Shown: positions 258 to 35,578 of the stretch, in pieces
Layout: each line of letters opens with the position of its first letter
Position numbering within the stretch: the first letter of the stretch is position 1
Source: an uncultured bacterium
Lineage (GTDB): Bacteria; Patescibacteriota; Minisyncoccia; Phycocordibacterales; UBA2100
Length of the DNA: 64,000 bases
Direction of reading: 5' to 3'
Assembly (NCBI GenBank): GCA_903858755.1
Contig: CAIOKC010000032.1
Span: 29,930 to 93,929 of the forward strand
The notes under the pieces: generated by a model
What the model was told of the DNA's origin: nothing
The model's database searches: none
What the model saw: only the letters and a program-made list of their open reading frames with translations
Made by a program: the position numbers and the translations under genes

Positions 258-3095
258 CTATTCGAATTGGATAGTCGTACTCGTCGCCTTTTGTATCTGC
301 TCGATATTCTTTTCGATGGCTATACGATGAGGATCATCGCCCTTCACCTTGAAGACCACAGGATCGCCGGGGCGCAGATTCTGCTCCTTGCGAAATGCCT
401 GTATCTCGCGGATGGTGTCGCGCACAAGCCCTTCCGCTTTCAACTCGTCGGTGAGTGCCGTATCAAGCGCAAGTTCTTTCCCGGGCTTTACTTCTTTTAC
501 GTTCACCTCTTCCGCAATAATGGTCATGTACCCAAGCGGCAATTTTGAGTCGGCAGGGACCACGAGCGACGAGAGTGGCTGACGAATCTTGATCCCCGCC
601 CTATCGCGCGCCTCAAGCGCCTGCGAGACGATCATACGCGCCGTGCGCATCGCCGCGAGCACGTTTGCGTCATCGCTGCCGAAAAGACGCTCGAAGATAG
701 ATGCATTCCGCGATACCTCCGGCCACCTGGCGAGGTGTACGCTTTCTTCATCTTCGCTCTCGCGAATTTCTTGGAAGAGACGCTCCGCAAAAAACGGTGC
801 GGACGGCGCCATGACACGCGCAAGCGCATGAAGCACGTAGCGCATCGTCGCGAGTGCGGCTTTTTTATCCAGCGTATCTTCCTTGAAGCGGTCGCGAGAG
901 CGGCGGAGATACCATACCGAGAGGTCGTCTATAAATCCGCCGATGGGGCGCGTCGCCACATCAAGCTGGTATGCGTTGAACCCCGCGGTCGTCTCGCGAA
1001 TAAGCTCGTCGAGCCGCGCAATGATCCATGTGTCGAGAATATTTTCGCTCTTCCAGTCGCGCACCGTGCCATCCGCATACAGCTTGTAAAATGCGAGCAC
1101 ATTGCTAAGGCGTCCGATATGCTTCTTCGCCACCTCATCCACCCCCTTTTCCGAGAAACTCAGATTTTCCGCCTGCATGACCGGTGATGAGAGAAGGTAC
1201 ATGCGGAGCGAATCCGCCCCGTATGTGTCGACCATCTCCATCGGGTCGGGATAATTCTGGAGCTTCTTCGACATCTTCTTGCCGTCTTCCGCGAGCACGA
1301 TGCCGTTGACGATCACATTCTGGAACGCATTGCTGCCAAACAGGGCGCCTGCAAGGACATGGAGGTAGTAGAACCACGCGCGGGTCTGATCAATCCCCTC
1401 CGCGATGAACTGTGCGGGAAAGACTTTGTCGAATGCCGCCTTATTCTCAAAGGGATAGTGCCGCTCTCCGTAGGGCATGGATCCGGAGTCAAACCATGTA
1501 TCAAGCACGTCCGGGATGCGCCTCATCGAGCCGCCGCATGCGCAGGGCACCGCGACATCGTCCACGACGTGTTTGTGGAGGTCATCGATCTTTTCGCCGC
1601 TCGCCTCTTCAAGCTCACGCGCGGAGCCGAATACGCGCTCCGCTTCGCATATCTGGCAACGCCATATCGGGATGACGCTTGCCCAGAATCGCTGGCGAGA
1701 GATAGACCAATCCCTCGCGCCAAGGAGCCACTTCCCCCACCGGCCTTCCTTGATATGCTCGGGCGACCACTTGATAGACTCCGCGTTTTTTAGAAGGTCG
1801 TCTTTGATGTGCGCGACGGAGACAAACCACGAGCTCGTCGCGTAATTCAAAAGCGGCGTGTCGCAGCGCCAGCAATGCGGATACGAGTGCGCGATGTTTT
1901 CTTTCGAGAAAAATAATCCGTGCTCTTGGAGGTATGTGAGGACTGCGATGTCTGCACCCAAGCGCACGCGATCATCTTCCGAATTCGGCTTCACTTCCAT
2001 TCCTGCAAAATCTTTTACTTCCGGCTTGAATGTGCCGTCCGGATTCACGTGTTGTACGAAGGGCAGATGTTCTTTCTTCAAAAGCTCCCAGTCTTCCGCG
2101 CCGAATGCGGGCGCCTCATGCGCGATTCCCGTGCCGCTCTCTGCGGTGATAAAATCCGCCGCATATACTTTCCAGCCATTCTCGCGATTCTTAAGATGCG
2201 GATCGCTGGCGTAGTAATCGAACAGTGGCTCATATTCCAAGCCGACGAGATCTGCGCCCTTGAATCGTTTCGTGACGGTGCGCTGAAGCGCATCGGCGTA
2301 CTTGTTCGACACGATAAGCTGGCTTTTGTCGTCCCAGTGCAGAGCTACGTACTCAATGTCGCCATGCACCGCGAGCGCGACATTGCCCGGCAGGGTCCAC
2401 GGGGTCGTCGTCCATGCGAGCATGTATGCTTCGCCCGACAACCCGAGCTTCTCGGGATTCTTCAATTTACACTTCACCGTCACCGCGATGTCTTTCACAT
2501 CTTTGTACCCCTCCGAGACCTCTTGCTGAGAGAGTGTCGTCTCGCAGCGCGGGCAGATGTGCATCGAGCGATAATCTTCGTAGACGAGTCCTTTGTCGTA
2601 GAGCTGCTTGAAAACCCACCACACGGATTCCATAAACGGCTTGTCCATGGTGCGGTACGCGTGCTTCATATCCGCCCATCTCCCGATGCGAGGGATTATC
2701 TTCTCCCACTCGTGCGCATACGTGAGCACTTGCTCGCGGCAGCGCTCGTTGAATTGCGCGACGCCCATCGCCACGATTTCCTTCTTGTGCTTGAAACCGA
2801 GCTGCTTCTCGACGATATTTTCTATCGGGAGTCCGTGGCAATCCCACCCCCACACGCGCGGCACGCGGTAGCCCTGCATCGTCCAGTAGCGCGGCACGAC
2901 ATCTTTGATGACAGAAGCGACGATGTGCCCGTAGTGCGGCAGACCCGTCGCAAAAGGTGGACCGTCGTAGAAAATGTAGTCGCCATGTCGCGCCGGCTTA
3001 TCGAGCGTCTGTTGGAATATACCGCGCTCTTCCCACCATTTGAGTATCTCTTCTTCCCGCAGAGCAGCATCCGATTTTTGCGGTTTTTCAGACAT
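258..3095 (-). CDS. ileS: Isoleucyl-tRNA synthetase
   Basis: 945-aa ORF with class I HIGH-type motif (PHYGH) and KMSKS-type motif (KMSKKLQNY); editing and anticodon-binding regions recognisable. Confidence 0.95.
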   Translation of the reverse strand: MSEKPQKSDAALREEEILKWWEERGIFQQTLDKPARHGDYIFYDGPPFATGLPHYGHIVASVIKDVVPRYWTMQGYRVPRVWGWDCHGLPIENIVEKQLGFKHKKEIVAMGVAQFNERCREQVLTYAHEWEKIIPRIGRWADMKHAYRTMDKPFMESVWWVFKQLYDKGLVYEDYRSMHICPRCETTLSQQEVSEGYKDVKDIAVTVKCKLKNPEKLGLSGEAYMLAWTTTPWTLPGNVALAVHGDIEYVALHWDDKSQLIVSNKYADALQRTVTKRFKGADLVGLEYEPLFDYYASDPHLKNRENGWKVYAADFITAESGTGIAHEAPAFGAEDWELLKKEHLPFVQHVNPDGTFKPEVKDFAGMEVKPNSEDDRVRLGADIAVLTYLQEHGLFFSKENIAHSYPHCWRCDTPLLNYATSSWFVSVAHIKDDLLKNAESIKWSPEHIKEGRWGKWLLGARDWSISRQRFWASVIPIWRCQICEAERVFGSARELEEASGEKIDDLHKHVVDDVAVPCACGGSMRRIPDVLDTWFDSGSMPYGERHYPFENKAAFDKVFPAQFIAEGIDQTRAWFYYLHVLAGALFGSNAFQNVIVNGIVLAEDGKKMSKKLQNYPDPMEMVDTYGADSLRMYLLSSPVMQAENLSFSEKGVDEVAKKHIGRLSNVLAFYKLYADGTVRDWKSENILDTWIIARLDELIRETTAGFNAYQLDVATRPIGGFIDDLSVWYLRRSRDRFKEDTLDKKAALATMRYVLHALARVMAPSAPFFAERLFQEIRESEDEESVHLARWPEVSRNASIFERLFGSDDANVLAAMRTARMIVSQALEARDRAGIKIRQPLSSLVVPADSKLPLGYMTIIAEEVNVKEVKPGKELALDTALTDELKAEGLVRDTIREIQAFRKEQNLRPGDPVVFKVKGDDPHRIAIEKNIEQIQKATSTTIQFE

Positions 3096-3118
3096 ATTTT
3101 AGCCTATGGTAGCAAACG

Positions 3119-3147
3119 AAAAGCCCGGCAGCGAGTGCCGGGCTTTT
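3119..3147. terminator. GC-rich hairpin flanked by A-run and T-run (bidirectional intrinsic terminator-like), 24 nt upstream of ileS start
   Basis: aaaagcccggcagcgagtgccgggctttt: 8-bp stem gcccggca/tgccgggc with A4 and T4 flanks. Confidence 0.5.
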
Positions 3148-3338
3148 GCATACGTGTCGGCGCGGGATCACTGCGCATCGGCGATCGCATCCTCGTAGCG
3201 AGGATCGATGATTGACCAGCCGCTGCCTGGAGAGCTTCTTCCCGGCTGAGAAACATCCTGGCTTTGCGAGCAAATTCTGCCATTATTTCCTCCTTTGGCT
3301 CCTCACTGCAGACTACCTGCAATCGGAGAATTACGCAA

Positions 3339-4997
3339 TTACATCCTCTCCGGAGCGGGAATGCCGAGAATCCAAAGACCGTTTTTGAGCGTCTTCGCAA
3401 CAGCCGCAGTCAGTGCCACCTTGTGGTGAGCGCTAGTCGAACCATCGAGAATCTGCTCGCGCGCGTACCAGCTGTTGAATGCCGATGCGACTTCGAGGAG
3501 ATACGTGGTGAGAAGGTGCGGCTCGAGCTTGCTGGCCGCATATTCGACGATCTCAGGAAAACGATACAAAAGTCGCTCCAAATCGTTCGGTGCAGTGATA
3601 TGATATATCATATCAGTCAACCCTTGTGTTCTGGCTCTCTCGACGACGGCGTGCGCGCGTGCGTGCGCATACTGCAAGTACGGACCCGAATCTCCCTCGA
3701 GCGAAAGCGCGCGCTCGCGGTCGAACACGATGTCTTTGCCCGACGCTTGCTTGAGTATCTGGTATTTTATGGCGGCGACGGCGACATCTCGCGCGAGCGC
3801 GCTCGCATCGTCCGCGCGGCTCTCCGCCGCGCGCGCTTTCGCCGCTTCGATCAGCTCACGGAGGAGCGCCTCGCCAGTGATCACATCGCCAGTGCGCGAC
3901 GACATCTTCCCCGATGGAAGCCGCATCATGCCGTGAGAGACATGCCGTATGTTTGTAGCAATGTCTGGAAGCACCTTCCTCATCGCAGCGAGCACCACTT
4001 CGAAATACCCGGCTTGTTCGTGGGCTGTGATGGTGATCGAGGTGTCAAAGCCCCACACCTCCGATTTCATCTGCGCGAGCCCAAGATCCTTCGCCTCGTA
4101 CGTCGGGAGACCCTTGGACGTAATAAACACGCGGGTATGGAGACCGTCCTGCTCGCCCTTGTAGACCACAGCGCCATCGCTCTCTTCGAAAATCTCCGGG
4201 TGCGCTTTCACGAGCGCAAGACCCTTCGGCGCTGTCTCGCTCTCGAAAAAGTAGTGATCGAATTTCGTGCCGAGTATTTTATACAGCTCCTCAAAATGCT
4301 TGAGTGATGCCTCGCGCCCCGTCGCGTATAGCTTGTTTACCTTCTCGTCGGAGCGCTCGTATACTTGCGCATTGATCGCATCGATTTCCTCTTTCGCACC
4401 TGGGTCAGATTCGTACGCTTTTGAACCCTCCGCGTAGGCGCGCCCAAGCTCGGAAGCATCCTTCGGGTCGACACCGAGCTTCATCACGCCCCAGATCGAT
4501 TTCGCCACGTGCGGACCCACATCGCCTTGGTAATTCGCCCGCTTCACCTCAGCGCCGGAACACTGGAGAAGGCGCGAGATCGCCTCGCCTATCGCGTTCG
4601 ACATCAAGTGCCCGATGTGGAATTCTTTGAAAGGATTCGGGTCGGTATACTCGACCATTATTTTTTTACCACTTTGATTTGTATTCGCTCCCCACATGTC
4701 TTCAGAGCGCGCTTGTTCGAGCGAGGCGGCGAGTACTCCCGGTGCGAGATAGAAATTGATGAAGCCCGCGCCAGCGACCTCTATTTTCGCCACGCCATCG
4801 AGAGTACCCAGTGTCTCCACAAGCTTTTCCGCGAGTGCACGCGGCACCATTCCCGCCTGCTTCGCGTACTGAAGCGCCGCGCTCGTCGCATAGTCGCCAT
4901 TCCCTAATTCTGCTGGACGTTCGACGACTACGCTGCCAGCAGCGATGCCCACGCTCTGAAGCGCGACGATGAGTGCTTGTTCGAGTTTCTCCCGCAT
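3339..4997 (-). CDS. argS: Arginyl-tRNA synthetase
   Basis: 552-aa ORF with HIGH motif (FHIGHLMSNAIGE) and typical ArgRS anticodon-binding C-terminus. Confidence 0.95.
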   Translation of the reverse strand: MREKLEQALIVALQSVGIAAGSVVVERPAELGNGDYATSAALQYAKQAGMVPRALAEKLVETLGTLDGVAKIEVAGAGFINFYLAPGVLAASLEQARSEDMWGANTNQSGKKIMVEYTDPNPFKEFHIGHLMSNAIGEAISRLLQCSGAEVKRANYQGDVGPHVAKSIWGVMKLGVDPKDASELGRAYAEGSKAYESDPGAKEEIDAINAQVYERSDEKVNKLYATGREASLKHFEELYKILGTKFDHYFFESETAPKGLALVKAHPEIFEESDGAVVYKGEQDGLHTRVFITSKGLPTYEAKDLGLAQMKSEVWGFDTSITITAHEQAGYFEVVLAAMRKVLPDIATNIRHVSHGMMRLPSGKMSSRTGDVITGEALLRELIEAAKARAAESRADDASALARDVAVAAIKYQILKQASGKDIVFDRERALSLEGDSGPYLQYAHARAHAVVERARTQGLTDMIYHITAPNDLERLLYRFPEIVEYAASKLEPHLLTTYLLEVASAFNSWYAREQILDGSTSAHHKVALTAAVAKTLKNGLWILGIPAPERM

Positions 4998-5014: not shown

Positions 5015-5632
5015 TTACTTGAGAATTCGGCTTACCAGCGCCCAGACATCTTTGTGTACCGTGTCTATAGAGCGGTCTGCATTTACAAAATATATTTTTG
5101 AGCCCTTCGGTTTGAATTTCTTGAATCCGGCGCGCACCGCGCGATGATACGAAAGCGGTTTTTTGTCGTACGCATTCAGGTCCTTCGCGCGGTCGGTCAA
5201 GAGTCTTTCCCGAGCTTTCTTCGGATCAGAATCAAGGATGATATACGCGTCGGGCACCGCTTTTCTAAGCACTTCACCCGAGAAGGCGCGGATGAGCTTT
5301 GCGTACTCGGGGCGCTTCCCTGCGCATACCTGATACGCATACGTGGAGGAATCGAAACGATCGGAGATTGCCATACGCCCCTTTTTTAGCGCGGGCGCGA
5401 TTATCTCTTCCACGAGCGCCGCGCGCGATGCGAGAAAAAGAAAAAAGACCGCAAGCGGCGACAGCGTCTTGCTCCCAAGAAGGACCGCGCGAACAGCCTC
5501 CCCCGTCGGGGTGCCTCCGGGGTCGTGCGTGAAGACCGCTCTGCTGCCAAGCTTCTTCCGCAGAAGCTTCACCTGGGAGCTTTTGCCTGAGCCGTCGATG
5601 CCGTCGATGACGATGAATCTCGCTCTCCTCAT
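5015..5632 (-). CDS. tmk: Thymidylate kinase
   Basis: P-loop FIVIDGIDGSGKSSQ and dTMP-binding pattern. Start taken at the internal Met (MRRARFIV) so that it does not overlap rplK. Confidence 0.85.
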   Translation of the reverse strand: MRRARFIVIDGIDGSGKSSQVKLLRKKLGSRAVFTHDPGGTPTGEAVRAVLLGSKTLSPLAVFFLFLASRAALVEEIIAPALKKGRMAISDRFDSSTYAYQVCAGKRPEYAKLIRAFSGEVLRKAVPDAYIILDSDPKKARERLLTDRAKDLNAYDKKPLSYHRAVRAGFKKFKPKGSKIYFVNADRSIDTVHKDVWALVSRILK

Positions 5633-5663
5633 GGGCTGATTATGCCCAATTATTCCCAAATCG

Positions 5664-6089
5664 CTAGCGGCTCTCGACGTCCACCCCCATGCTGCGCGCC
5701 GTGCCCGCGATGATTTTCTTGGCTTGCTCAAGATCGTTGGCGTTCAAATCTTCCATCTTGTCTTTCGCGATATCCTCAAGCTGCTGCTTCGAGAGCTTGC
5801 CCACTTTGTTCTGCGGCTTGTCCGACCCCTTCTCGATGCCGAGCGCCTTCAAGACCATGCGGGAGGCAGGCGGCTTTTTCACGATGAAGGAGAACGTGCG
5901 ATCCTTATAGACCTGCATGACGACCGGCAAAATACTACCGATTCTATCTTTGGTCTGCGCGTTGAATTGATTGACGAATTCCCCGATATTGACGCCCGCA
6001 GGACCAAGCACCATACCCACCTGCGCAGCAGGAGTAGCGGTACCCCCCGGAAGCTGCAATTTGATTACTTTCGTTATTTCTTTTGCCAT
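5664..6089 (-). CDS. rplK: 50S ribosomal protein L11
   Basis: [43 protein letters not shown]... is a canonical L11 sequence. Confidence 0.9.
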
Positions 6090-6128
6090 ACGGAATCTGT
6101 GTCGGTGCACTATACCTGCAAGTCGACG

Positions 6129-7118
6129 TTATTTCAAGCTTTTGAGCTTCGTCAGGATTGGACGTGCCAGCTTCCGTGCATTCCCATGCGAGAGCAGCCC
6201 ACTGTATGATTCCAGCACCGGTTTGCTCTCGCTTCTCGCCGTGGCGCTCATCATCCGCCGCTTCGTCGCGGTGCGCAGCACGCGGTGGTCGGGAAAATGC
6301 ACCCAGCCCAGGAAATCGACACCGGATGCGAGCGTCTTGATGAACACCTTGTCGGGATGGAGTGTGAGTGCGAGTCGGCGCTCAAGAAATTCTGCAATCT
6401 TCGGGAGCAGGATATCAAGGTCCGACCTTGACGCAGAGAGGAAGACGAAATCATCCGCGTAGCGGACGTAGTGCTTCGCTTTCAGACGATGCTTCACGAA
6501 TTGGTCGAATTCATTCATGTAGATATTTACCAACAGTTGGCTCGTGAGGTTGCCGAGCGGGAGTCCCCTGTGCTGACACCGATTCCCCACGGTCGTGGTG
6601 AATCGGTGGCGGTGCGGGCTGCAGGAGCAGAAGCTCCCGATGATCTCCGAGAGGAGCGCGAGGATGCGCTCGTCTGCAATCGAGCGGCGCAGGATGTCGA
6701 GCAGAATAGATTGATCGATACTCGCGAAGAATTTCCTGATGTCGCACTTGAGTACCCAGCAGGTGCGCGTGTGATTGCGCGAGACTGTGTACGCAAAGCG
6801 GCGAAAGCGGTCCATTGCCTTGTGCGTACCCTTTCCTCTCCGGCATGAATACGAGTCTGCGATGAAGGCGCGATCGAAGAAGGGATAGAGCATGCGGTAT
6901 ATCGCATGGTGGAGCGCGAAGATGTTGTCCATGAGCGCGTGCTGGAATTCCTGTACATCGAGCTTCTTGCGCTTGCCCCGCACAAATTCTCGCCAAGCTT
7001 CGAGGAGATTTTCTACCGAGATGATATCCTCGTAGTTATGCGCGAAGCGGATGCGACCAATACGCCCCCCCGGCCGAGGACTGCTGCCTGTTTTGGAGCG
7101 CATCAAGACCGCGTACAT
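6129..7118 (-). CDS. Reverse transcriptase, diversity-generating retroelement (DGR) type
   Basis: 329 aa with RT motifs 1-7 and YADD. Motif 4 reads GLPLGNLTSQLLVNIY, the [I/L]GxxxSQ signature of DGR RTs, rather than the QGxxxSP of group II intron or retron RTs. No maturase/X domain. The N-terminus (NYEDIISVENLLEAWREFVRGKRKK) fits DGR RT starts. Confidence 0.75.
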   Translation of the reverse strand: MYAVLMRSKTGSSPRPGGRIGRIRFAHNYEDIISVENLLEAWREFVRGKRKKLDVQEFQHALMDNIFALHHAIYRMLYPFFDRAFIADSYSCRRGKGTHKAMDRFRRFAYTVSRNHTRTCWVLKCDIRKFFASIDQSILLDILRRSIADERILALLSEIIGSFCSCSPHRHRFTTTVGNRCQHRGLPLGNLTSQLLVNIYMNEFDQFVKHRLKAKHYVRYADDFVFLSASRSDLDILLPKIAEFLERRLALTLHPDKVFIKTLASGVDFLGWVHFPDHRVLRTATKRRMMSATARSESKPVLESYSGLLSHGNARKLARPILTKLKSLK

Positions 7119-7587
7119 TTTGTGGCATGAGTACCATTCTAAACTGCCAAAGACTCACCGATACACCGTTGGTGCAAAGATAGATTCGCTGTTCGCAGAG
7201 GTGATGGAGATGGTATCGGCGGCGGCATTTTTGCCGAAACAGGAGAAACTGTCCTATGTACGGACCGCGATACGAAAGTCTGACGCGCTGAAGCTCCTGC
7301 TTCTGATTCTGTGGGAAACGAAATCTCTTGATACGAAGAAATACGCCGCGCTATGCGCGCCACTCGATGAGGTGGGCAAGATGCTCGGCGGCTGGCAGGG
7401 GCAGCTTGTAAAAAACTCAGCCCCGCGCGAAGGCGCGGGGCTGAAGTGCAAAGGTCAAAGCGGCCAAGTGCAATACAAGTGTCAGAGAGTCGAAGACACT
7501 TCCGGGACGCCAGCGAACGACCAGTCGTCGTGCCAGTCGAGGCCGCCGCGGCTGACGTACACGCGGCGCGCGTCAGGCCAGCGGTAG
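7051..7587 (+). CDS. Four-helix-bundle protein of the Avd / 23S-rRNA-IVS family (putative DGR accessory variability determinant)
   Basis: LPKTHRYTVGAKIDSLFAEVMEMV...LKLLLLILWETKSLDTKKYAALCAPLDEVGKMLGGWQGQL fits the PF05635/Avd-like pattern (PKxxRYxL..Q..RAA ... EVGKMLxGL). The ORF has no stop until 7587. It reads through the convergent gene's terminator hairpin and overlaps the 3' end of the 7482-8126 gene on the opposite strand, so the true C-terminus is uncertain and it may be decayed. Confidence 0.5.
   Translation: MRPIRPPGRGLLPVLERIKTAYILWHEYHSKLPKTHRYTVGAKIDSLFAEVMEMVSAAAFLPKQEKLSYVRTAIRKSDALKLLLLILWETKSLDTKKYAALCAPLDEVGKMLGGWQGQLVKNSAPREGAGLKCKGQSGQVQYKCQRVEDTSGTPANDQSSCQSRPPRLTYTRRASGQR
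7417..7442 (-). terminator. GC-rich hairpin (11-bp stem, GAAG loop) followed by T6 on the minus strand. Intrinsic terminator of the 7482-8126 gene and possible DGR VR-proximal hairpin.
   Basis: cagccccgcgcgaaggcgcggggctg. On the minus strand the hairpin is followed by agtttttt. Confidence 0.5.
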
Positions 7588-8126
7588 AACGCGGCGAAGC
7601 AATATTTGCCGTCAGCGTCGATCCACTGACAAGCAAGCCCCTTCTCGTCGGCCGCGGCAGGATTTTTCTTACAGTAGTCCGCGAGAGCTTCCACGTCAAC
7701 GCGAAGGCCACGCTGACGATATTCCTCGGCAAGATCGTTGCAACTCAACACACCATCCTTGTACTTCGACTTGTCGACGTTGAAGATGTGGAGTCGGGCG
7801 CTAGACTTCGTACCGCGCGGCATTGTCGCGACAACCGCCGAATCGGAATAAATCTTCCGACCAGTATCAATCAATACCTGCTCGTTCGAGCGGGAACGGT
7901 CGATCGTGCGGACGGTGTGGACGATCGAGCCAACAGTCATCGCGATGTGCTTACGCAGGACACCGATCTGCTCGCCAAGATAGCGGTTCTGCCCGAGGAC
8001 CGCCTGCACTGCGGCCGAATCGCCGATTGCCGTGCGATGGGTCATGAGCAGTGCCCTGTAATGGGCGACGGCTTTGTCGACCTGCTTGAGAGTCATTGGG
8101 TTTGATGGGGTCATGGTCTGTGCCAT
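7482..8126 (-). CDS. Hypothetical cytoplasmic protein; candidate DGR target (variable) protein
   Basis: 214-aa ORF immediately upstream, in transcription order, of the Avd-like ORF and the RT. C-terminus ...RRVYVSRGGLDWHDDWSFAGVPEVSSTL loosely recalls RGGSW...-type DGR variable regions. No homologous template repeat found. Confidence 0.35.
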   Translation of the reverse strand: MAQTMTPSNPMTLKQVDKAVAHYRALLMTHRTAIGDSAAVQAVLGQNRYLGEQIGVLRKHIAMTVGSIVHTVRTIDRSRSNEQVLIDTGRKIYSDSAVVATMPRGTKSSARLHIFNVDKSKYKDGVLSCNDLAEEYRQRGLRVDVEALADYCKKNPAAADEKGLACQWIDADGKYCFAAFYRWPDARRVYVSRGGLDWHDDWSFAGVPEVSSTL

Positions 8127-8228
8127 GGCGTCATCTCCTTTTGTGAACGAGCTGTCCTGACGTCCGAGAATACGGAGTCATCAGCTAAATTGATTGTACC
8201 ACTCTTTATCAAAAAAGCAAGTCCACGA

Positions 8229-8274: not shown

Positions 8275-8820
8275 TTACACTCGCTGTACCTGGTCCGCTT
8301 CGAGCTCCACCGGTGTCTCGCGACCGAACATTGGTACGAGCACTTTAACTTTTCCGCGCTCTTCGTCAATCTCTCCCACCTTTCCTTCCAGATCTTTGAA
8401 CGGTCCGTCGATGATAACGACCGCATCGCCCTCCGAGAGATCGATCGCGTGGCGGACAGTATCTCCGAGCGCGCGCTTGAGGATCTTGTCTACCTCTTCC
8501 TGCGCGAGCGGCACCGCCTGATTCGCGGTACCCACAAACCCCGTCACCTGCGGAGTGTTTCTCACCACGCTCCACGCATCGTCGCTCGCGATCATGTCGA
8601 CAAGGACATAGCCGGGGAATATCTTTTCCTTGGTCTCGGTCTTGCGGCCGTTCTTGATTTTTATCTTCTTCTCGGTCGGGACGACGACTTGGAATATCTT
8701 CTCCCCCATGCCGAAAGAGTCGACGCGCTGCCTCAAATTGCGGGCGACCGCGTCCTCGTATCCGGAATACGTGTGCACCGCATACCACTTCCGCTCACTG
8801 CCGTGTGTCTGCTTCATATG
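8275..8820 (-). CDS. nusG: Transcription termination/antitermination factor NusG
   Basis: KWYAVHTYSGYEDAVARNLRQRV...IFPGYVLVDM... (NGN domain) plus C-terminal KOW (GDAVVIIDGPFKDLEGKVGEID). Confidence 0.9.
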   Translation of the reverse strand, partial: HMKQTHGSERKWYAVHTYSGYEDAVARNLRQRVDSFGMGEKIFQVVVPTEKKIKIKNGRKTETKEKIFPGYVLVDMIASDDAWSVVRNTPQVTGFVGTANQAVPLAQEEVDKILKRALGDTVRHAIDLSEGDAVVIIDGPFKDLEGKVGEIDEERGKVKVLVPMFGRETPVELEADQVQRV

Positions 8821-8821
8821 T

Positions 8822-9094
8822 TTATTGGGTCGTCGTGGTCGAGACCTGCTCGACGACAAACGGCGAATCGGAGATCGGCTGCTGCGTGATAGTGATCGGA
8901 TTTTCCTGCGGAAGCACGTTTAAGAAGCGCGCGAGCCCTGTCGTGAAATGAAAGTCGAAAAGCCCGAGGTAGAGCGCGACGAAGATTGAGACGAGTACCA
9001 CAAGAATCGTGTATACGATTGTCTGCACCTGGGTCGGCCACGCGACGTGGTGAAGCTCGCCGCGTGTGTCTTTGAGGTATTGAATGAATGACAT
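8822..9094 (-). CDS. secE: Preprotein translocase subunit SecE
   Basis: 90 aa, FIQYLKDTRGELHHVAWPTQVQTIVYTILVVLVSIFVALYLGLFD: SecE signature and single TM. Immediately upstream of nusG. Confidence 0.8.
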   Translation of the reverse strand: MSFIQYLKDTRGELHHVAWPTQVQTIVYTILVVLVSIFVALYLGLFDFHFTTGLARFLNVLPQENPITITQQPISDSPFVVEQVSTTTTQ

Positions 9095-9213: not shown

Positions 9214-10029
9214 CTAGCGGATCTCGTAGGTTATATTCACGTTTGAGGTGATTTTGTTTTCGCCGGCGGGAAGCTCGGGAGATGCCTTCGTCGCAGAAGC
9301 GTCCATGCGCTCCGCGCCACCCATGCCGTATGCATAGGGCGCCGGGTACCCGCCCTCGTTTTCGTAGAATCCGACGACGCGTACAACCTCAACGCCCAGA
9401 GAGTCCGCGAGCGCCTCTGCTTTTTCTTTCGCCTGCGCAATCGCCTTGTCGCGAGCCTCCGCCTTGAGCGCATCTTCGTCGTCGATGGTAAACGAAAGCC
9501 CCGATACAGAGGATGCTCCAAGACCACCGACTCCCGAGAGCAAGTCTCCTGCTTTCTTCGTGTCGCGCACTTTTACGGTAAGGGTCTGACTTACTTGGAA
9601 GCCGCGGAGCTCCTGACGACCTCCGGGGCAGTAGCCGCCCGAGCACGCGACTTGAATGTAATCATATTGAGGGTACACGCTGTAGTCGGTGGTCTTGATG
9701 TCTTTTTCCTCGATGCCCTCTTTCTTCAAGTACGCGACGATGTCGTTGGATTTTTTAGTCGCGACATCTTGCGCGTCTGCGACTTGCTTCGCCTCTTCCT
9801 GGACGGTCACGCTGAATGTCGCGGTGTCCGGCACGGCAAATACCTCGCCTTCGCCTGATACGGTGATGCTGTTGGTCGCAGTGACTCCGCTTCCGATATA
9901 GCGATACCCTTTCAAAGCAGCAAGCGCCTCGACAAAAAGAAATACGGAAAGCGCGATGAGCGCTACCGCCGCGAATTTCCGCACTCGTTCCGTCGCACTG
10001 ATAATCTTGTCCGCCGCTTGTCCATCCAT
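9214..10029 (-). CDS. SIMPL-domain (DUF541) secreted protein
   Basis: N-terminal TM/signal; central and C-terminal pattern typical of the 26-kDa periplasmic immunogenic protein / SIMPL family (…VSQTLTVKVRD…GLSFTIDDEDALKAEARDKAIAQAKEKAEALA…). Confidence 0.65.
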   Translation of the reverse strand: MDGQAADKIISATERVRKFAAVALIALSVFLFVEALAALKGYRYIGSGVTATNSITVSGEGEVFAVPDTATFSVTVQEEAKQVADAQDVATKKSNDIVAYLKKEGIEEKDIKTTDYSVYPQYDYIQVACSGGYCPGGRQELRGFQVSQTLTVKVRDTKKAGDLLSGVGGLGASSVSGLSFTIDDEDALKAEARDKAIAQAKEKAEALADSLGVEVVRVVGFYENEGGYPAPYAYGMGGAERMDASATKASPELPAGENKITSNVNITYEIR

Positions 10030-11781: not shown

Positions 11782-12339
11782 CTACTGATACGAAGGGGGT
11801 TGTTCGGAGACGTGGGCGCGATGGTTTACGAAGCGCGTGAGCGCATAGAGAAGCGAGGAGAGCCGATTCGCATACGCGCGGCTCGAATCAGATATGGCGC
11901 GCTCACCGGATTCGTGCAGCGTGGCGACGCGGCGCTCCGCGCGGCGCGAGACCGCGCGCGCGATGTCGAGCCGCGCGGAGAGCTCGGTCGCACCCGGCAC
12001 CAGAAAGGTCTTGACCGGCGGCATCTCTGCTTCAATGCGGTGTATCAGCATCCCCATCGCCTCGACGCTCGAAAGTGGGATCGATTTCTCCGCGCCGGCG
12101 ACCTCCGCCTGAAGCGTGAAAAGGTGATCTTGCACGTCGTGCAAGACGAGCTTCATCCGTCTTCCCTGCACTTCAGTCCCTTCGCCACATTCCGCCTTGC
12201 ACCACCCGACAAGCGTATTTAATTCATCGAGCATGCCGAGACACTCGAAAATCGGCGAGGTCTTTGACACGCGCGCGCCGGGCGGCGAATCGAAAAGCTT
12301 CGACGTGCCGCCATCTCCTTTCCCGGTGAAAAAAGCCAT
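11782..12339 (-). CDS. ATP:cob(I)alamin adenosyltransferase, PduO/MMAB type
   Basis: MAFFTGKGDGGTSKLFDSPPGARVSKTSPIFECLGMLDELNTLVGW... with the TGDGGTT-like motif of PduO-type adenosyltransferases. Start at MAFFTG, 45 nt inside the track ORF. Confidence 0.8.
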   Translation of the reverse strand: MAFFTGKGDGGTSKLFDSPPGARVSKTSPIFECLGMLDELNTLVGWCKAECGEGTEVQGRRMKLVLHDVQDHLFTLQAEVAGAEKSIPLSSVEAMGMLIHRIEAEMPPVKTFLVPGATELSARLDIARAVSRRAERRVATLHESGERAISDSSRAYANRLSSLLYALTRFVNHRAHVSEQPPSYQ

Positions 12340-12356
12340 GACTCCATGATAGCAAA
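12259..12356. repeat. 98-bp direct repeat copy A (covers the 5' end and start codon of the adenosyltransferase gene)
   Basis: Identical to 14912-15009 except one synonymous G/A difference (12310 vs 14963). Confidence 0.9.
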
Positions 12357-12391
12357 TATCACTCGGTCCCACGTGCAGAGACACGACTCCG

Positions 12392-12817: not shown

Positions 12818-14920
12818 ATGAAACTGCCCGAACTGTCGTTCGCAGCGCTTGCATTAATGGTTATCACTGCACTTTTCAGCGCTACCACGGTCCTTGTACA
12901 TCCTTCCACGGAGGTTGCGCAAACAGTCAGAGCGACATCGCAAAAAGGCAATTGTAAGCTCGGGGACCTAGAATTCAGAGGGGCAAGCAGTATCGGGGAG
13001 CAAGAGTGCAAACGCGGCGCTGAGTATGAGATCATCGCACCAAAAAAGAAGGGGGATTTTGTCTACGATATAAAAACGAAAAAATGCCCACCATCCCCAC
13101 CACCTACCCCACGAGGCGTGAATCCTGAAGTGTGGAAGAAACAGTGGGAGGCAAAGCAGCCAGAAGGAGTGGTAAGTCTAAAGACACCGACCAACGGGAC
13201 GCTCATCGTGACCTGCGACAAGAAATTGGGCAGTTCGGGATCCTTCATGAAGGAGGTCGGCGACATATCGCGTGCCTCTTTGGGTGAGGCGCGAACTACA
13301 TCCCCCGAAAGTCCTCGGACGCCTTCGGCGCCAGCGCGTGAAAGCAGCTATGCTTTTCAAGATTCTTTCGATGAGCAACCCCCTTCTTCTTCGAACTCGG
13401 ACGGAACAGAAAAACCGAAGACGTCGCTTGAGGATTTGGCGAAAGAAATCGCACAAAAAAGAAACGACCTCAACAACAGCGACCCCGCAATCCAGCGCGC
13501 GGCGCAAGACTACTTGGCACTACAATCACGACTCGGAGAAGGGCGCTACATCGGCGTGGAAAGCAGCGAGCGGGACGGGACGCTCGGTGGAGCTATTCAA
13601 AAAGATGTGCGCGAAGCGTCGGCTCGTAATACAGCTCTGGCGATTTCAGACACATTTGCCAATGCGGACGGAGTCTACGTGACCAACGTCGAGCAAAAAG
13701 GTTTGGCGACGCGAGTCCTCGATAGAGCGACCGGGAGCGAGACCTTTTACAGCAATGTTACCGGGAGACCCTTTCTGGAGGTGGACGGCAACGCTCTTTC
13801 TCTTATCTCTGCCGACGGATCAGTGTACCCCGTGGCGCCTGACGGAGAGTGGCAAAACAAACTCGGGACGCTGGACAAAACAGAATACGATGTCTTTGCA
13901 GATAATTACCTCTCCCCGAGAGAAATGCCTGTTCAATCTTTCAAATACGATCCACCAGTGGCGGCCTGGACAGATGATACTGGCGCTGAAATACCGCCAG
14001 CGACTTCTGAATACCCGAATGGTCGCGTGACTATCACTGACAGTGACGGGAACAAAAAGGTTATTCCGGCAGATGAATACTGGGCGGTAATTGAAGCGGG
14101 TAAACGCGTGTACGATACCGACCAACTCGCACGAGAAATAAATCAATGGACACACGGCAAGATCCTTCTCTCGCCGCCAGAAGCATTCCCTTCTTCGAAG
14201 GGCGGCTTTTTTGCTGAAGGCGGCAATGTACCTGCAAGTTCGCTCACGCCACAGTCTATCGGGCAATATGCGAGTGCAATGGAGAAAATGTACGACGTAT
14301 ACAAACAAATGCCGCCGGAACTATGGGCAAACGAGGGTATACAACCTACTGATGTATATACTTTTGCACAAGATCCTGCCGCACCAAAAGTCAGAGCGGC
14401 GGGAATCGCATATCTTGGTGGGGGCAGTCAGTGGTCAAATCCCGACGCACACGACGTATACATGACAACTGGTCACGAGCTTGGGCATACGTTGGGAAAC
14501 GTCTTCCCGAGTGATCAGCAGTGGGGCTCAAGTGTGTATGGCGAATCGTGGCAGCGTGCATACGGTGGGAAAGATTCAGTTGAGGCGTACGCTGCCGGTA
14601 AACTTGGGTACGACAGAGCTCCGGGTTATGCGACGACATACGGCTTTGCGGGCGGTGTGCGTGAAGATCAGGCGGAGATATTTGGTGCCATGCTCACGAA
14701 TTATCCGGCGGTACAACACGCCGCTGCAAGCGATCCTGCGTTGAATCAAAAAATGCAGATGGTGCAGGATTCGTTTTCCGCAGCAACAGGTGGCGTTATG
14801 AATCAGAATTACTGGAACAACATGAAAGTTCTCGACTCAGACTTCTTCCTCGCACAATCAAACCCTAACTTTTTGACAACACTATACCGAGTACTCGGAG
14901 CCAAGCGTGCGGGTCTTTGA
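12818..14920 (+). CDS. Secreted/membrane-anchored protein with HExxH zinc-metallopeptidase motif
   Basis: 700 aa; N-terminal TM/signal (MKLPELSFAALALMVITALF); Pro/Ser-rich linker; HELGH motif near the C-terminus (DVYMTTGHELGHTLGN). The stop codon lies inside direct-repeat copy B. Confidence 0.55.
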   Translation: MKLPELSFAALALMVITALFSATTVLVHPSTEVAQTVRATSQKGNCKLGDLEFRGASSIGEQECKRGAEYEIIAPKKKGDFVYDIKTKKCPPSPPPTPRGVNPEVWKKQWEAKQPEGVVSLKTPTNGTLIVTCDKKLGSSGSFMKEVGDISRASLGEARTTSPESPRTPSAPARESSYAFQDSFDEQPPSSSNSDGTEKPKTSLEDLAKEIAQKRNDLNNSDPAIQRAAQDYLALQSRLGEGRYIGVESSERDGTLGGAIQKDVREASARNTALAISDTFANADGVYVTNVEQKGLATRVLDRATGSETFYSNVTGRPFLEVDGNALSLISADGSVYPVAPDGEWQNKLGTLDKTEYDVFADNYLSPREMPVQSFKYDPPVAAWTDDTGAEIPPATSEYPNGRVTITDSDGNKKVIPADEYWAVIEAGKRVYDTDQLAREINQWTHGKILLSPPEAFPSSKGGFFAEGGNVPASSLTPQSIGQYASAMEKMYDVYKQMPPELWANEGIQPTDVYTFAQDPAAPKVRAAGIAYLGGGSQWSNPDAHDVYMTTGHELGHTLGNVFPSDQQWGSSVYGESWQRAYGGKDSVEAYAAGKLGYDRAPGYATTYGFAGGVREDQAEIFGAMLTNYPAVQHAAASDPALNQKMQMVQDSFSAATGGVMNQNYWNNMKVLDSDFFLAQSNPNFLTTLYRVLGAKRAGL

Positions 14921-15009
14921 CACGCGCGCGCCGGGCGGCGAATCGAAAAGCTTCGACGTGCCACCATCTCCTTTCCCGGTGAAAAAAGCCATGACTCCAT
15001 GATAGCAAA
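14912..15009. repeat. 98-bp direct repeat copy B
   Basis: See copy A. Lies 59 bp from tRNA-Leu. Confidence 0.9.
14913..14991 (-). pseudogene. Orphan 5' fragment (first ~27 codons) of the PduO-type adenosyltransferase gene
   Basis: Encodes MAFFTGKGDGGTSKLFDSPPGARVSKT, then diverges and stops. The full gene is at 11782-12339. Confidence 0.6.
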
Positions 15010-33160: not shown

Positions 33161-35578
33161 TCAGCGGGCGAGCTTCTTCATGGCGCCCCAATTTTTGCCG
33201 AGCGATGCCTCCGCAACGACAGGGACGCCGGAGAGCGCTCCGGTCGGGGCTGCGGATTCCATCACCTTCCGTATTTTCTCCGCCGCTTCTTCTGCGACAT
33301 CTTCGTCGAGCTCGTAGACGAGCTCGTCGTGCACCTGCATGATGAGCTTCACCTTCTCCCGCCACCCCGCCTGCTCGATGAGCGCATCCGCCTCGACCAT
33401 CGCGAGCTTGATGATGTCGGATTGCGTCCCCTGTATGGGCGCGTTGATCGCCATGCGCTCCGCCTGCGCGCGCAGACCGTCCATCGAGGACTTGAGCGCC
33501 GGGAAGTAGCGGCGTCTTCCGAAGAGCGTCTCGGTGTACCCTTTGTTCGCTGCGTCCGCCTTCGTATGCTCGATGTAGCGCGAAAGCCCGGAAAAGTTCT
33601 TGAAATACTCAGAAAGAAATTTCGCGGCGTCCTCGCGGGAGACGCCTTCTCCGAGATTCGCGCGGAGCGCATTCACGCCCATGCCATAGAGGATGCCGAA
33701 ATTGATCACTTTCGCGCGACGCCGCATTTCGTAGTCCACATGCTCGGGCGGCACATTGAATACTTCGGCAGCGACCGCCGTATGAATGTCGCCGCCTTTT
33801 TTAAATACCTCGACGAGTTTCTCGTCGCCGGAGAGACCCGCCGCGATGCGGAGCTCTATCTGCGAGTAGTCGATGGCGCAGAGGATCTTCCCCGGAGGCG
33901 CCGCAAACGCTTCGCGAATGCGGCGCCCGTATTCCGTCTTGATGGGTATATTCTGCAAGTTCGGATTCTGGCACCCCATGCGCCCCGTCACGGTGCCTGT
34001 CTGCAAAAACTCCGCATGCAGCCGCCCGTCCTTTGCGATAAGCCCGGGCATTTTCTCGATGTATGTGGAGAGCAATTTCTGCAATTCCCGATACGCGAGA
34101 ATGTCGGCGATGATCGGGTGCATCTCCGAGAGCTTCTCGAGCTCGCTTTCTTTTGTCGTGCGCGCGCCGGTCGGCGTTTTCTTCTGCTTCAGGGGCACGA
34201 TCTTGAGCTCATCGTACAAGACGGTCGCAAGCTGCTTCGGCGAATTGATATTGAATTCGCGCCCCGCATGCGCGTATATCCTCCCCGCGAGACTCCCGAG
34301 CTCCTTCCCGTACTCGCGCGCCAGCTCCGCAAGATGCGGCGCATCGACGTAGACGCCAGCCGCATTCATGCGCTCGACTACCGGCATGAGCGGGCGCTCG
34401 ATCTTTTCGTACACCTCATGCAGCCTTCCCGTCTTCCTCAGCTCTGCAAAGATGTATTCGCGCGCCGAGTCGAAATCGCTCGTCTTCGCGTACGCGAGAA
34501 TATCCTCGAGTGTCGGCGTCGTCGTGTCTGAGTGCAAAAGCCAGAGCGCGAGCGCAGCTTCGCCGAACAAGCGGGGGTCGACCTCGGGATGCGATGCCAC
34601 ACTCGCTGCCGGCTCTTTCGAAAAAGCTCTGCGGAGGCGCTCCTTGAGCGCCCTGAATTCAAGCTCGTCGTAGAGCACGGAAATGCTTTCTACGTGCTCG
34701 CCAAGCTGCCAGCGCTCTTTCGGCAACTCAAACTCGATCGGGGCGTCCGTATGAATGGTCGCGAGCGTCTTCGAGAGCGCGGCGTCTTTTTTCCCGGCTC
34801 GAAGCAATTCGACGACGCGCGGCTTCACTTTTTGCGCGAACGACGCCGGATCTTTTTCGAGCGCCCGGTAGATGTCTTCGACCGAACCGAACTCCTTGAT
34901 AAGCTCGGTCGCCGTCTTCTCTCCGATGCCCCGTATGCCGGGGATGTTGTCCGACGGATCGCCGCGAAGACCTTTGTAATCGACGACGCGGTCGGGATCG
35001 AATCCATACCGCTCGCGCACCGCGTCTTCGTCGTAGAGGACGGTATCGTTGATGCCTTTGCGGAGAGTGTAGACACAGACGTTCGGGCTCACGAGCTGAA
35101 GAGTGTCCATGTCCCCCGTCGCGATGATGAGCGCAAGATCCTTACGATCGCCAAGCTTCCTCACGATGGTGCCGATGATGTCGTCGGCTTCGTATCCTGC
35201 CTGCTGGTAGACAGGAATACCGAATGCCTCGAAGACGCGCGGCGCGCGTTCAAGCTGAGCGACAAGTTCGTCTTCCGCCTTCGCGCGAGTCCCTTTGTAC
35301 GCCTCAAAAAGCCCGTGGCGGTGCGTGTCGCCCGGCATGTCGCGCGCCGCGATGATGTAATCGGGCTCGATCTCGTCGACCGCTTTCAGGAGCATGGTCG
35401 AGAGACCGTAGAGCGCGCCCGTGGGCTCGCCCTTGCTCGACGAAAAATCCGGAAGCGCGTGGTACGCGCGATGCAAAATCGCGTGCGAATCGAGGATGAG
35501 TACCCGCAGTGCCTTTTCAGTTTCCCTCTGTGCTTTTTGCTTCGCCATTGGCAGTGATGATACGCCCCTCTCCGACAA
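33161..35578 (-). CDS. polA: DNA polymerase I
   Basis: 805 aa: 5'-3' exonuclease domain, then polymerase motifs A (IMQVHDELVYE-like region), B (RRRAKVINFGILYGMG) and C. The likely start is MAKQKAQ at about 35548. Confidence 0.9.
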   Translation of the reverse strand: MSERGVSSLPMAKQKAQRETEKALRVLILDSHAILHRAYHALPDFSSSKGEPTGALYGLSTMLLKAVDEIEPDYIIAARDMPGDTHRHGLFEAYKGTRAKAEDELVAQLERAPRVFEAFGIPVYQQAGYEADDIIGTIVRKLGDRKDLALIIATGDMDTLQLVSPNVCVYTLRKGINDTVLYDEDAVRERYGFDPDRVVDYKGLRGDPSDNIPGIRGIGEKTATELIKEFGSVEDIYRALEKDPASFAQKVKPRVVELLRAGKKDAALSKTLATIHTDAPIEFELPKERWQLGEHVESISVLYDELEFRALKERLRRAFSKEPAASVASHPEVDPRLFGEAALALWLLHSDTTTPTLEDILAYAKTSDFDSAREYIFAELRKTGRLHEVYEKIERPLMPVVERMNAAGVYVDAPHLAELAREYGKELGSLAGRIYAHAGREFNINSPKQLATVLYDELKIVPLKQKKTPTGARTTKESELEKLSEMHPIIADILAYRELQKLLSTYIEKMPGLIAKDGRLHAEFLQTGTVTGRMGCQNPNLQNIPIKTEYGRRIREAFAAPPGKILCAIDYSQIELRIAAGLSGDEKLVEVFKKGGDIHTAVAAEVFNVPPEHVDYEMRRRAKVINFGILYGMGVNALRANLGEGVSREDAAKFLSEYFKNFSGLSRYIEHTKADAANKGYTETLFGRRRYFPALKSSMDGLRAQAERMAINAPIQGTQSDIIKLAMVEADALIEQAGWREKVKLIMQVHDELVYELDEDVAEEAAEKIRKVMESAAPTGALSGVPVVAEASLGKNWGAMKKLAR

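Follow-up and report, generated by a model that had tools for sequence, protein, structure and literature searches.

In a 64-kb stretch of contig CAIOKC010000032.1 from an uncultured bacterium of the Patescibacteriota (the whole stretch is here called the window), the genes nusG and rplK are separated by 2.1 kb of DNA that includes a gene for a reverse transcriptase (RT). What is this interval, was it inserted there, and does it still work? The original prediction, made from the sequence alone, described it as a diversity-generating retroelement (DGR) that, if active, would diversify a protein of an unusual kind. The analysis presented here makes it very likely that the interval is a DGR cassette of the Patescibacteria (Candidate Phyla Radiation, CPR) type, with the order target/variable region (VR) - template repeat (TR) - (avd) - RT, which was inserted immediately upstream of the rplK promoter and later inactivated. 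The features listed in the original prediction are all present at or near the positions given there, well beyond chance expectation. The minus strand carries, in this order, secE, nusG, an open reading frame (ORF) of 214 aa, a GC hairpin with a T-run, the RT ORF of 329 aa, rplK and tmk (Table 1), with Pfam E-values for secE, nusG and rplK that range from 1.6e-13 to 5e-29.

An insertion between nusG and rplK

The 2.1-kb interval is an insertion, because related loci have a short gap without a cassette at the same place. Among 80 metagenome loci whose NusG is 59-93% identical to that of the window, 74 hold both nusG and rplK, and in 73 of these 74 the distance between the two genes is 5-682 nt (250 nt or less in 66 of them) with no homologue of the RT, of Avd or of the target gene in the gap. 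The synteny comparison thus bore out what had been predicted, namely that a cassette was inserted between nusG and rplK. The spacers of 440-680 nt found in some relatives were considered as possible remnants of a cassette and rejected, since they have no similarity to it.

The insertion left the sequence in front of rplK in place. The -35 element of the rplK promoter-like site overlaps the final codons of the RT gene (AGC TTG AAA TAA), and the same promoter motif is found upstream of rplK both in L129, a relative without a DGR, and in L143, a relative with one. As rplK keeps its own promoter, this ribosomal gene should not depend on read-through.

A reverse transcriptase of the DGR clade

The motifs and database matches of the window RT identify it as a member of the DGR clade, as had been proposed. 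It keeps YADD and a motif 4 that reads GLPLGNLTSQ, of the form [L]GxxxSQ. Its best solved relative is bRT, the RT of the Bordetella phage DGR (structure 8ub7, E 1.2e-26), which is matched by a full-length homologue of the window RT (P0005) with an E-value of 4e-38, whereas RT structures of group II introns and of the retron type score about 1e-13 with the window RT and about 1e-16 with P0005. RTs of these two groups share with the window RT the generic motifs of the palm and fingers, and are distinguished from it by motif 4, LGNLTSQ in the window protein. A group II intron was rejected as a candidate, with 120 bits against a cutoff of 300 for TIGR04416 (group_II_RT_mat) and with no maturase or endonuclease domain in the protein; a retron was likewise rejected, with 60 bits against the cutoff of 235 for the NCBIfam model of retron St85. 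The window RT falls far under every cutoff of the NCBIfam models for group II, retron, Drt and Abi RTs. With PADLOC only the generic 'RT' model was the best match for this protein, and neither of its neighbours matched any defence model; the Rfam search of the 64-kb window returned tRNAs only, with no group II intron or retron RNA. The profile comparison suggested together with the prediction therefore favours the DGR clade.

Homologues of the window RT number in the thousands, and those that have been named come from metagenome-assembled genomes (MAGs) of Kaiserbacteria, Minisyncoccota or Patescibacteria. The best of them are 59-65% identical, and it is in this same range that the window RT resembles the RTs of family members that have TR/VR pairs.

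Target gene and variable region

The 214-aa gene reported in the original prediction is real and is a homologue of genuine DGR targets, its C-terminus being the VR. The protein shows 67%, 62% and 42% identity to the targets of L009, L010 and L004, respectively, three related loci with complete cassettes that are described below. Besides an identical sequence it has 13 close homologues, and a profile search extends the family to about 1,200 clusters (50% identity), of which 824 have E <1e-10; searches of Pfam and, by sequence, of the Protein Data Bank (PDB) gave no match for the family. In the family alignment the last ~35 residues alternate between an invariant scaffold (W, R, V, V, R, W, FAGVP) and hypervariable columns.

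The window VR is 81% identical to the TR consensus of the relatives. When it is compared with the TRs of three of them, adenines of the TR, about a quarter of its bases, account for 16 of 22, 19 of 23 and 18 of 24 mismatches. Because the mismatches concentrate on TR adenines, the VR bears, to judge from this comparison, the mark of past (old) adenine mutagenesis. Moreover, its 3' end resembles perfectly the conserved element for initiation of mutagenic homing (IMH) and is identical to the TR ends of the relatives.

A first structural model of the target, based on 14 sequences, had a predicted local distance difference test score (pLDDT) of 56 and was unusable, and the prediction was redone with 102 sequences. 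The resulting AlphaFold model (pLDDT 92) is helical in its N-terminal part and ends in an alpha/beta domain, of which the VR forms the last strands. Foldseek gave no significant match of this model in the PDB; the weak structural matches are mostly proteins of the C-type-lectin fold. According to the model, then, the target looks like the usual lectin-fold kind of DGR target, which speaks against the earlier view that it is not of the surface-lectin type. The lack of a signal peptide, also taken at first as a sign of an unusual target, is equally ordinary: the protein has no signal peptide and no known domain, and its VR is at the C-terminus, while absence of a signal peptide is already described as typical of CPR DGR targets, which typically also lack a transmembrane segment or known domain (Roux et al., PMC8144416).

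Some other features of this target family are recorded here. The 5' leader of the target in the window and in L004 differs from that of the other cassettes, but the ribosome binding site and start are the same (AAGGAGATGACGCCATG). A conserved hairpin (..CACAGCGGAAAGCGGCTTGAAATCAGGCC.TTTTCCGCTGTGGC..) is found in the target 5' leader of L143 (~1865-1915), L009 (~493-540) and L010 (~2325-2375). Two paralogous target genes occur on a single Patescibacteria contig (L039, 2901-3524 and 6791-7423). Finally, an N-terminally shortened target homologue of 145 aa adjoins pilM in L011/L012 (1440-1877), with no RT nearby, and is possibly another orphaned target.

The cassette in intact relatives

The organization of a complete cassette can be seen in four related loci (L004, L006, L009 and L010), which have a common module. 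In it a target gene of ~205-228 aa is followed by a hairpin, by a conserved spacer of ~200-250 nt and by a repeat with a second hairpin behind it; then come avd, encoded on the opposite strand, and the RT. In each of them a repeat of 99-112 nt at the 3' end of the target recurs just before avd. Among the loci with TR/VR pairs, the adenine mismatch pattern was counted in L004, L006 and L143 (for the last see below), and the differences lie at adenines of the avd-proximal copy in 19 of 22 cases in L004 and in all 17 in L006. Repeat pairs with adenine-specific differences make these four loci textbook DGRs. Their cassettes lie inside a pilus operon (L004), between a TraG-like gene and ndk (L006), between a PemK-like gene and a murD-like start (L009), and between a toxin-antitoxin pair and a gene of the thioredoxin family, DsbA-like (L010).

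By analogy with the Bordetella phage DGR, in the intact members of the family a structured RNA containing the TR would be reverse transcribed by an RT-Avd complex, with misincorporation opposite adenines, and the cDNA would then replace the VR at the 3' end of the gene for a small lectin-fold protein. The region of ~250 nt upstream of the TR folds into helices supported by compensatory changes (L004, 7226-7700; L009, 1251-1705; L010, 3069-3550; L024, 6985-7520), and base pairing is predicted between a GAAG segment and a CTTC immediately 3' of the TR. In the family with inverted avd most of the functional DGR RNA may lie 5' of the TR, which would set it apart from the Bordetella spacer.

Cassettes of this kind have been described before. 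Wu et al. (2018, PMC5758913) use the name B3 for the architecture TR-(avd)-RT and place CPR DGRs in a set of their own, and DGR clade 2 is restricted to Patescibacteria (Roux et al. 2021, PMC8144416). The window cassette shares with the DGRs of CPR/Patescibacteria the RT family, an opposite-strand Avd-like ORF between the TR position and the RT, a small target with C-terminal VR and no signal peptide or known domain, and a host of the Kaiserbacteria/Patescibacteria type. It differs from them in that it has no TR, no leader RNA and no Avd stop, lacks 37 RT residues comprising motif 1 and the fingertips, and lies between nusG and rplK. It also differs from the DGR of Bordetella phage BPP-1 (mtd-avd-TR-brt, the source of the bRT-Avd structure 8ub7): in the window avd is inverted and the element is chromosomal instead of phage-borne, the conserved RNA of BPP-1 is in the downstream spacer whereas in the relatives of the window cassette it is mainly upstream of the TR, and the window copy is most likely inactive.

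Loss of the template repeat

In an alignment with L004, L009 and L010, the VR of the window is followed by ~35-45 nt of its downstream flank and then by a gap of ~390-400 nt, after which the second hairpin and avd are present again. Lost with this block were the hairpin on the VR side, the structured and conserved leader, the complete TR and the Avd stop codon. A TR was searched for locally and across the 64-kb window, by repeat searches with short seeds and with the TR consensus of the relatives, and only the VR was found; the leader RNA of the relatives was also searched for across the 64 kb and not found. A scan of the GTDB representatives, a set that does not include the source genome, with the 3' end of the VR/TR gave 115 matches, most of them chance matches in unrelated phyla.

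Two further elements had been seen in part correctly. The GC hairpin is present, about 36 nt past the target stop codon and inside the Avd coding region of the other strand, but it is not the hairpin that accompanies a VR: by positional homology in the alignment it corresponds to the one located 3' of the TR in the relatives, the VR-side hairpin having been deleted while the IMH-like end was kept. Given its stem and the T-run on the sense strand of the target, it looks like an intrinsic terminator.

The Avd-like ORF, for its part, is real, encoded on the plus strand opposite to the RT and extending beyond position 7440, where it had been thought to end. It scores 57 bits with the NCBIfam model DivGenRetAVD (cutoff 80) and 36 bits with Pfam bAvd (cutoff 40); its identity to the Avd ORFs of L010, L090, L027 and L004 is 77-80%. 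The ORF shares sequence with the start of the RT gene on one side and with the end of the 214-aa gene on the other. The homology covers approximately residues 12-125, and beyond ~7426 the reading frame stays open for some 50 codons more, antisense to the final part of the target gene. In the relatives Avd ends with '...KRGEK*' at the border of the TR, its stop being located in TCATTTCTC between the TR and the second hairpin; the extension in the window is thus due to deletion of the normal stop. The window Avd is most likely a non-functional relic.

Loss of the RT fingertips

The second lesion is in the RT itself, which has a gap of 37 aa relative to 11 of 11 aligned homologues. The missing segment is kept in 119 of the 120 top RT matches, and the one exception is the window protein again, from the same organism. 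In homologues it reads '...LHRDLxxGTYxHGGYEAFKISDPKPRDIHKAxVRDRL'. A weak tblastn match of the segment at 35270-35362, inside polA, was rejected as due to chance. Since residues 29-71 of the window RT align with residues 9-51 of bRT and residues 68-291 with residues 85-282, residues 52-84 of bRT have no counterpart in the window protein. This stretch covers motif 1, the 'KPR' motif and the fingertips loop, including the equivalents of F66, R74 and I76. In the structure of bRT with Avd and RNA, F66 and I76 are in contact with the template base, and R74 with the incoming dNTP (10.1101/2023.10.23.563531), R74 corresponding to R72 of the RT of human immunodeficiency virus (HIV) (PMC7826257). By analogy with structures and mutagenesis of bRT and HIV RT, the truncated window RT is most likely non-functional.

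In the relatives an 8-nt repeat, GCTCCACC, borders the missing 111 nt at both ends, which points to a deletion by microhomology. Outside the deletion, none of the 107 RT positions conserved in at least 95% of homologues is substituted, and the inactivation therefore looks recent. Accelerated decay of the RT was rejected for the same reason, its mean identity to the family being ordinary.

Taking the two lesions together, one deletion of ~390-400 nt removed the TR, the leader RNA, the VR-side hairpin and the Avd stop, and a second of 111 nt, between the 8-nt repeats, removed motif 1 and the fingertips loop, with which the RT positions template base and dNTP. The target itself is intact, has a promoter-like site of its own and ends at the former TR-side hairpin, and is thus most likely expressed as a frozen variant. 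Its promoter-like site scores under the threshold of the consensus scan and is one that we infer.

Table 1. Coordinates in the window of the cassette, its lesions and its flanking genes.
Feature	Position	Strand	Description	Evidence
secE	8822-9094	-	Context, upstream of the insertion	Pfam SecE, E 1.6e-13
nusG	8275-8820	-	Left flank of the insertion	Pfam NusG and KOW
Promoter-like site of the target gene	8193-8220	-	TTGCTT, 16-nt spacer, TG-n-TACAAT (extended -10)	Read from the sequence
DGR target gene	7482-8126	-	214 aa, ORF intact; N-terminal helical part and predicted C-terminal C-type-lectin-like domain	
Variable region (VR)	7485-7601	-	Sole repeat copy left; 3' end CTGGTCGTTCGCTGGCGTCCCG is the IMH-like conserved end	
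Flank downstream of the VR	7446-7481	-	Retained; ends at the junction of the ~390-400-nt deletion	Alignment with L004, L009 and L010
GC hairpin and T-run	7406-7445 (stem-loop 7416-7445)	-	13-bp stem, CTTC loop	Terminator-like scan
Avd-like ORF	7051-7587	+	178 aa	NF033474 (DivGenRetAVD), E 1.9e-15; Pfam bAvd, E 9e-9
DGR-clade RT	6129-7118	-	329 aa, in-frame deletion of 37 aa	Pfam RVT_1, E 2.6e-24
Junction of the RT deletion	6908-6915	-	GCTCCACC; in relatives this 8-nt repeat borders the missing 111 nt on either side	
Promoter-like site of rplK	6109-6137	-	TTGAAA-17-TATAGT	Consensus scan, 10/12 matches
rplK	5664-6089	-	Right flank of the insertion	Pfam Ribosomal_L11 and Ribosomal_L11_N

Is the cassette really inactive?

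Several points must be weighed against a cassette that has been switched off. Both the RT and the Avd reading frames remain open, and beyond the deletion the RT shows no damaging change, which would also fit continued selection for some function. The inactivity of the shortened RT rests on its homology to bRT and HIV RT. The searches covered 64 kb of the genome, and a second DGR elsewhere could act on the VR in trans. The population data are uninformative in this respect: the VR is identical in the window, L001 and L002, that is, in three assemblies from different samples, and the VR of an apparently intact relative is equally invariant across three assemblies.

The alternative that fares best takes up the third of these points: the locus would be dead as a retroelement, and another DGR of the same family, intact and located elsewhere in the genome, would still diversify the VR in trans. 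DGRs can act on remote targets with the same 3' end as the TR, the IMH-like end of the VR is preserved, remote and multiple targets are documented for DGRs (PMC5758913), and the contig L039 carries two paralogous targets. We nevertheless consider this distinctly unlikely, as no other RT, TR or leader RNA is present in the 64 kb and the VR-side hairpin has been deleted; the identity of the VR in the three assemblies counts against it as well, though weakly.

Another proposal is that the shortened RT and the lengthened Avd persist because they serve a new role independent of polymerization, such as RNA binding or regulation. In favor of it, all 107 conserved RT positions are unchanged and both deletions leave open reading frames, but the same pattern is expected if the deletions are merely recent, and no other member of the family has this form. 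As the closest other RT is only 65% identical, the distance is too great for selection to be measured, and we regard a new role as very improbable.

It was proposed originally that the DGR, if active, would diversify the target, and this premise almost certainly fails, because the 64 kb contain no TR, and motif 1 and the fingertips loop are missing from the RT. An active, complete element whose TR went unrecognized would account for the joint presence of an RT of the DGR clade, a homologue of Avd and a target that carries a VR; it is hardly credible when sensitive self-comparisons reveal a single repeat copy and the place of the TR in the relatives corresponds exactly to the ~390-400-nt gap of the window.

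Finally, TR/VR-like repeats can collapse in short-read assemblies, and yet the deletions are not artefacts of assembly, since the 329-aa RT is present on 7 contigs of the same organism and the locus is >99.5% identical in two independent assemblies, from other samples; a simple collapse of TR and VR does not fit the retained copy, which still has the flank that belongs downstream of the VR, and the RT deletion lies outside the repeat region, so that a real genome with an intact DGR hidden by faulty assembly or binning is extremely unlikely. A CPR-type cassette inserted upstream of the rplK promoter and later switched off is thus the explanation that we favor.

Recurrence at the nusG-rplK junction

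One relative has an intact DGR at the same junction (L143; Ga0209210_1010766, 1997-4466; NusG 84% identical to that of the window). It consists of a 205-aa target of another family, a VR/TR pair of 114 nt, an opposite-strand avd and a full-length RT of 355 aa, and 17 of 20 TR/VR mismatches are at TR adenines. The surroundings are alike in the two loci: a 210-aa ORF of L143 is homologous to the 271-aa ORF of the window (9214-10029) and is followed by secE and nusG, with rplK downstream. The order of the cassette is identical and in both the RT stop adjoins the rplK promoter (-35 TTGAA, -10 TATAGT). In contrast, the RTs are 60% identical, Avd only 33%, and the targets have no significant sequence similarity, and L143 keeps a full-length RT and the TR/VR pair that the window lacks. 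The relatives closer to the window than L143 (NusG 85-93%) have no cassette.

A single old insertion, with later exchange and loss of cassettes, may have given rise to both loci, or cassettes may have been inserted repeatedly at one spot. In a bolder version of the latter, the site just upstream of the rplK promoter would be a preferred landing site for whole DGR cassettes in Kaiserbacteria-like bacteria, and the window cassette would have been caught soon after two deletions froze the chosen variant of the target. This is based on the finding that two lineages hold differing cassettes there, with unrelated targets and divergent Avd and RT, while closer relatives have none; we think it unlikely, and mention it for what it would imply. 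The unit would span from the target promoter through the RT stop, and retroelements held to be 'non-mobile' would move as units by an unknown, site-selective route. Ribosomal protein genes have been found inside five CPR DGRs (Wu et al., PMC5758913).

Other sequences were also observed at or near this junction. In L129, the closest relative by NusG (93%), the nusG-rplK spacer has an antisense ORF of 170 aa (6545-7057) that is unrelated to the cassette, and the spacer of L150 (NusG 89%) is similar in length to that of L129. The spacer seems to take insertions repeatedly. In L157 a fragment of an RT of the same family as the window RT (3-596) lies ~2 kb upstream of nusG and is ended by the contig edge.

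Other features of the window

After rplK come tmk and argS instead of rplA (5015-6089), and no L1 gene adjoins the L11 gene in the segment. Further upstream of secE, a direct repeat of 98 nt, 99% identical, is found at 12259-12356 and 14912-15009 and flanks a segment of ~2.55 kb, which contains a membrane-like ORF of 130 aa on the minus strand and an ORF of 700 aa on the plus strand with a strong A-over-T skew. The first copy of the repeat is within the 5' part of a 200-aa gene (11782-12384). This repeat-bracketed segment looks like an insertion with a long duplication.

Implications

CPR DGRs, the inverted-avd layout and targets without signal peptides are already published, and the general picture of DGR biology is unchanged by this locus. 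It offers a natural example of how a DGR may be switched off, with the template RNA and the RT fingertips gone, the diversified gene intact and a fixed variant expressible, at least the RT deletion lying between short direct repeats. It also illustrates that an RT with DGR motifs, an Avd and a plausible target are insufficient to call a DGR active, and that the TR/VR pair and the RT core need to be checked. Moreover, a DGR cassette can occupy the secE-nusG-rplK cluster without displacing the promoter-like site of rplK, and in this clade the junction has been occupied more than once. This recurrence of DGRs between nusG and rplK is the one point that would be worth following up.

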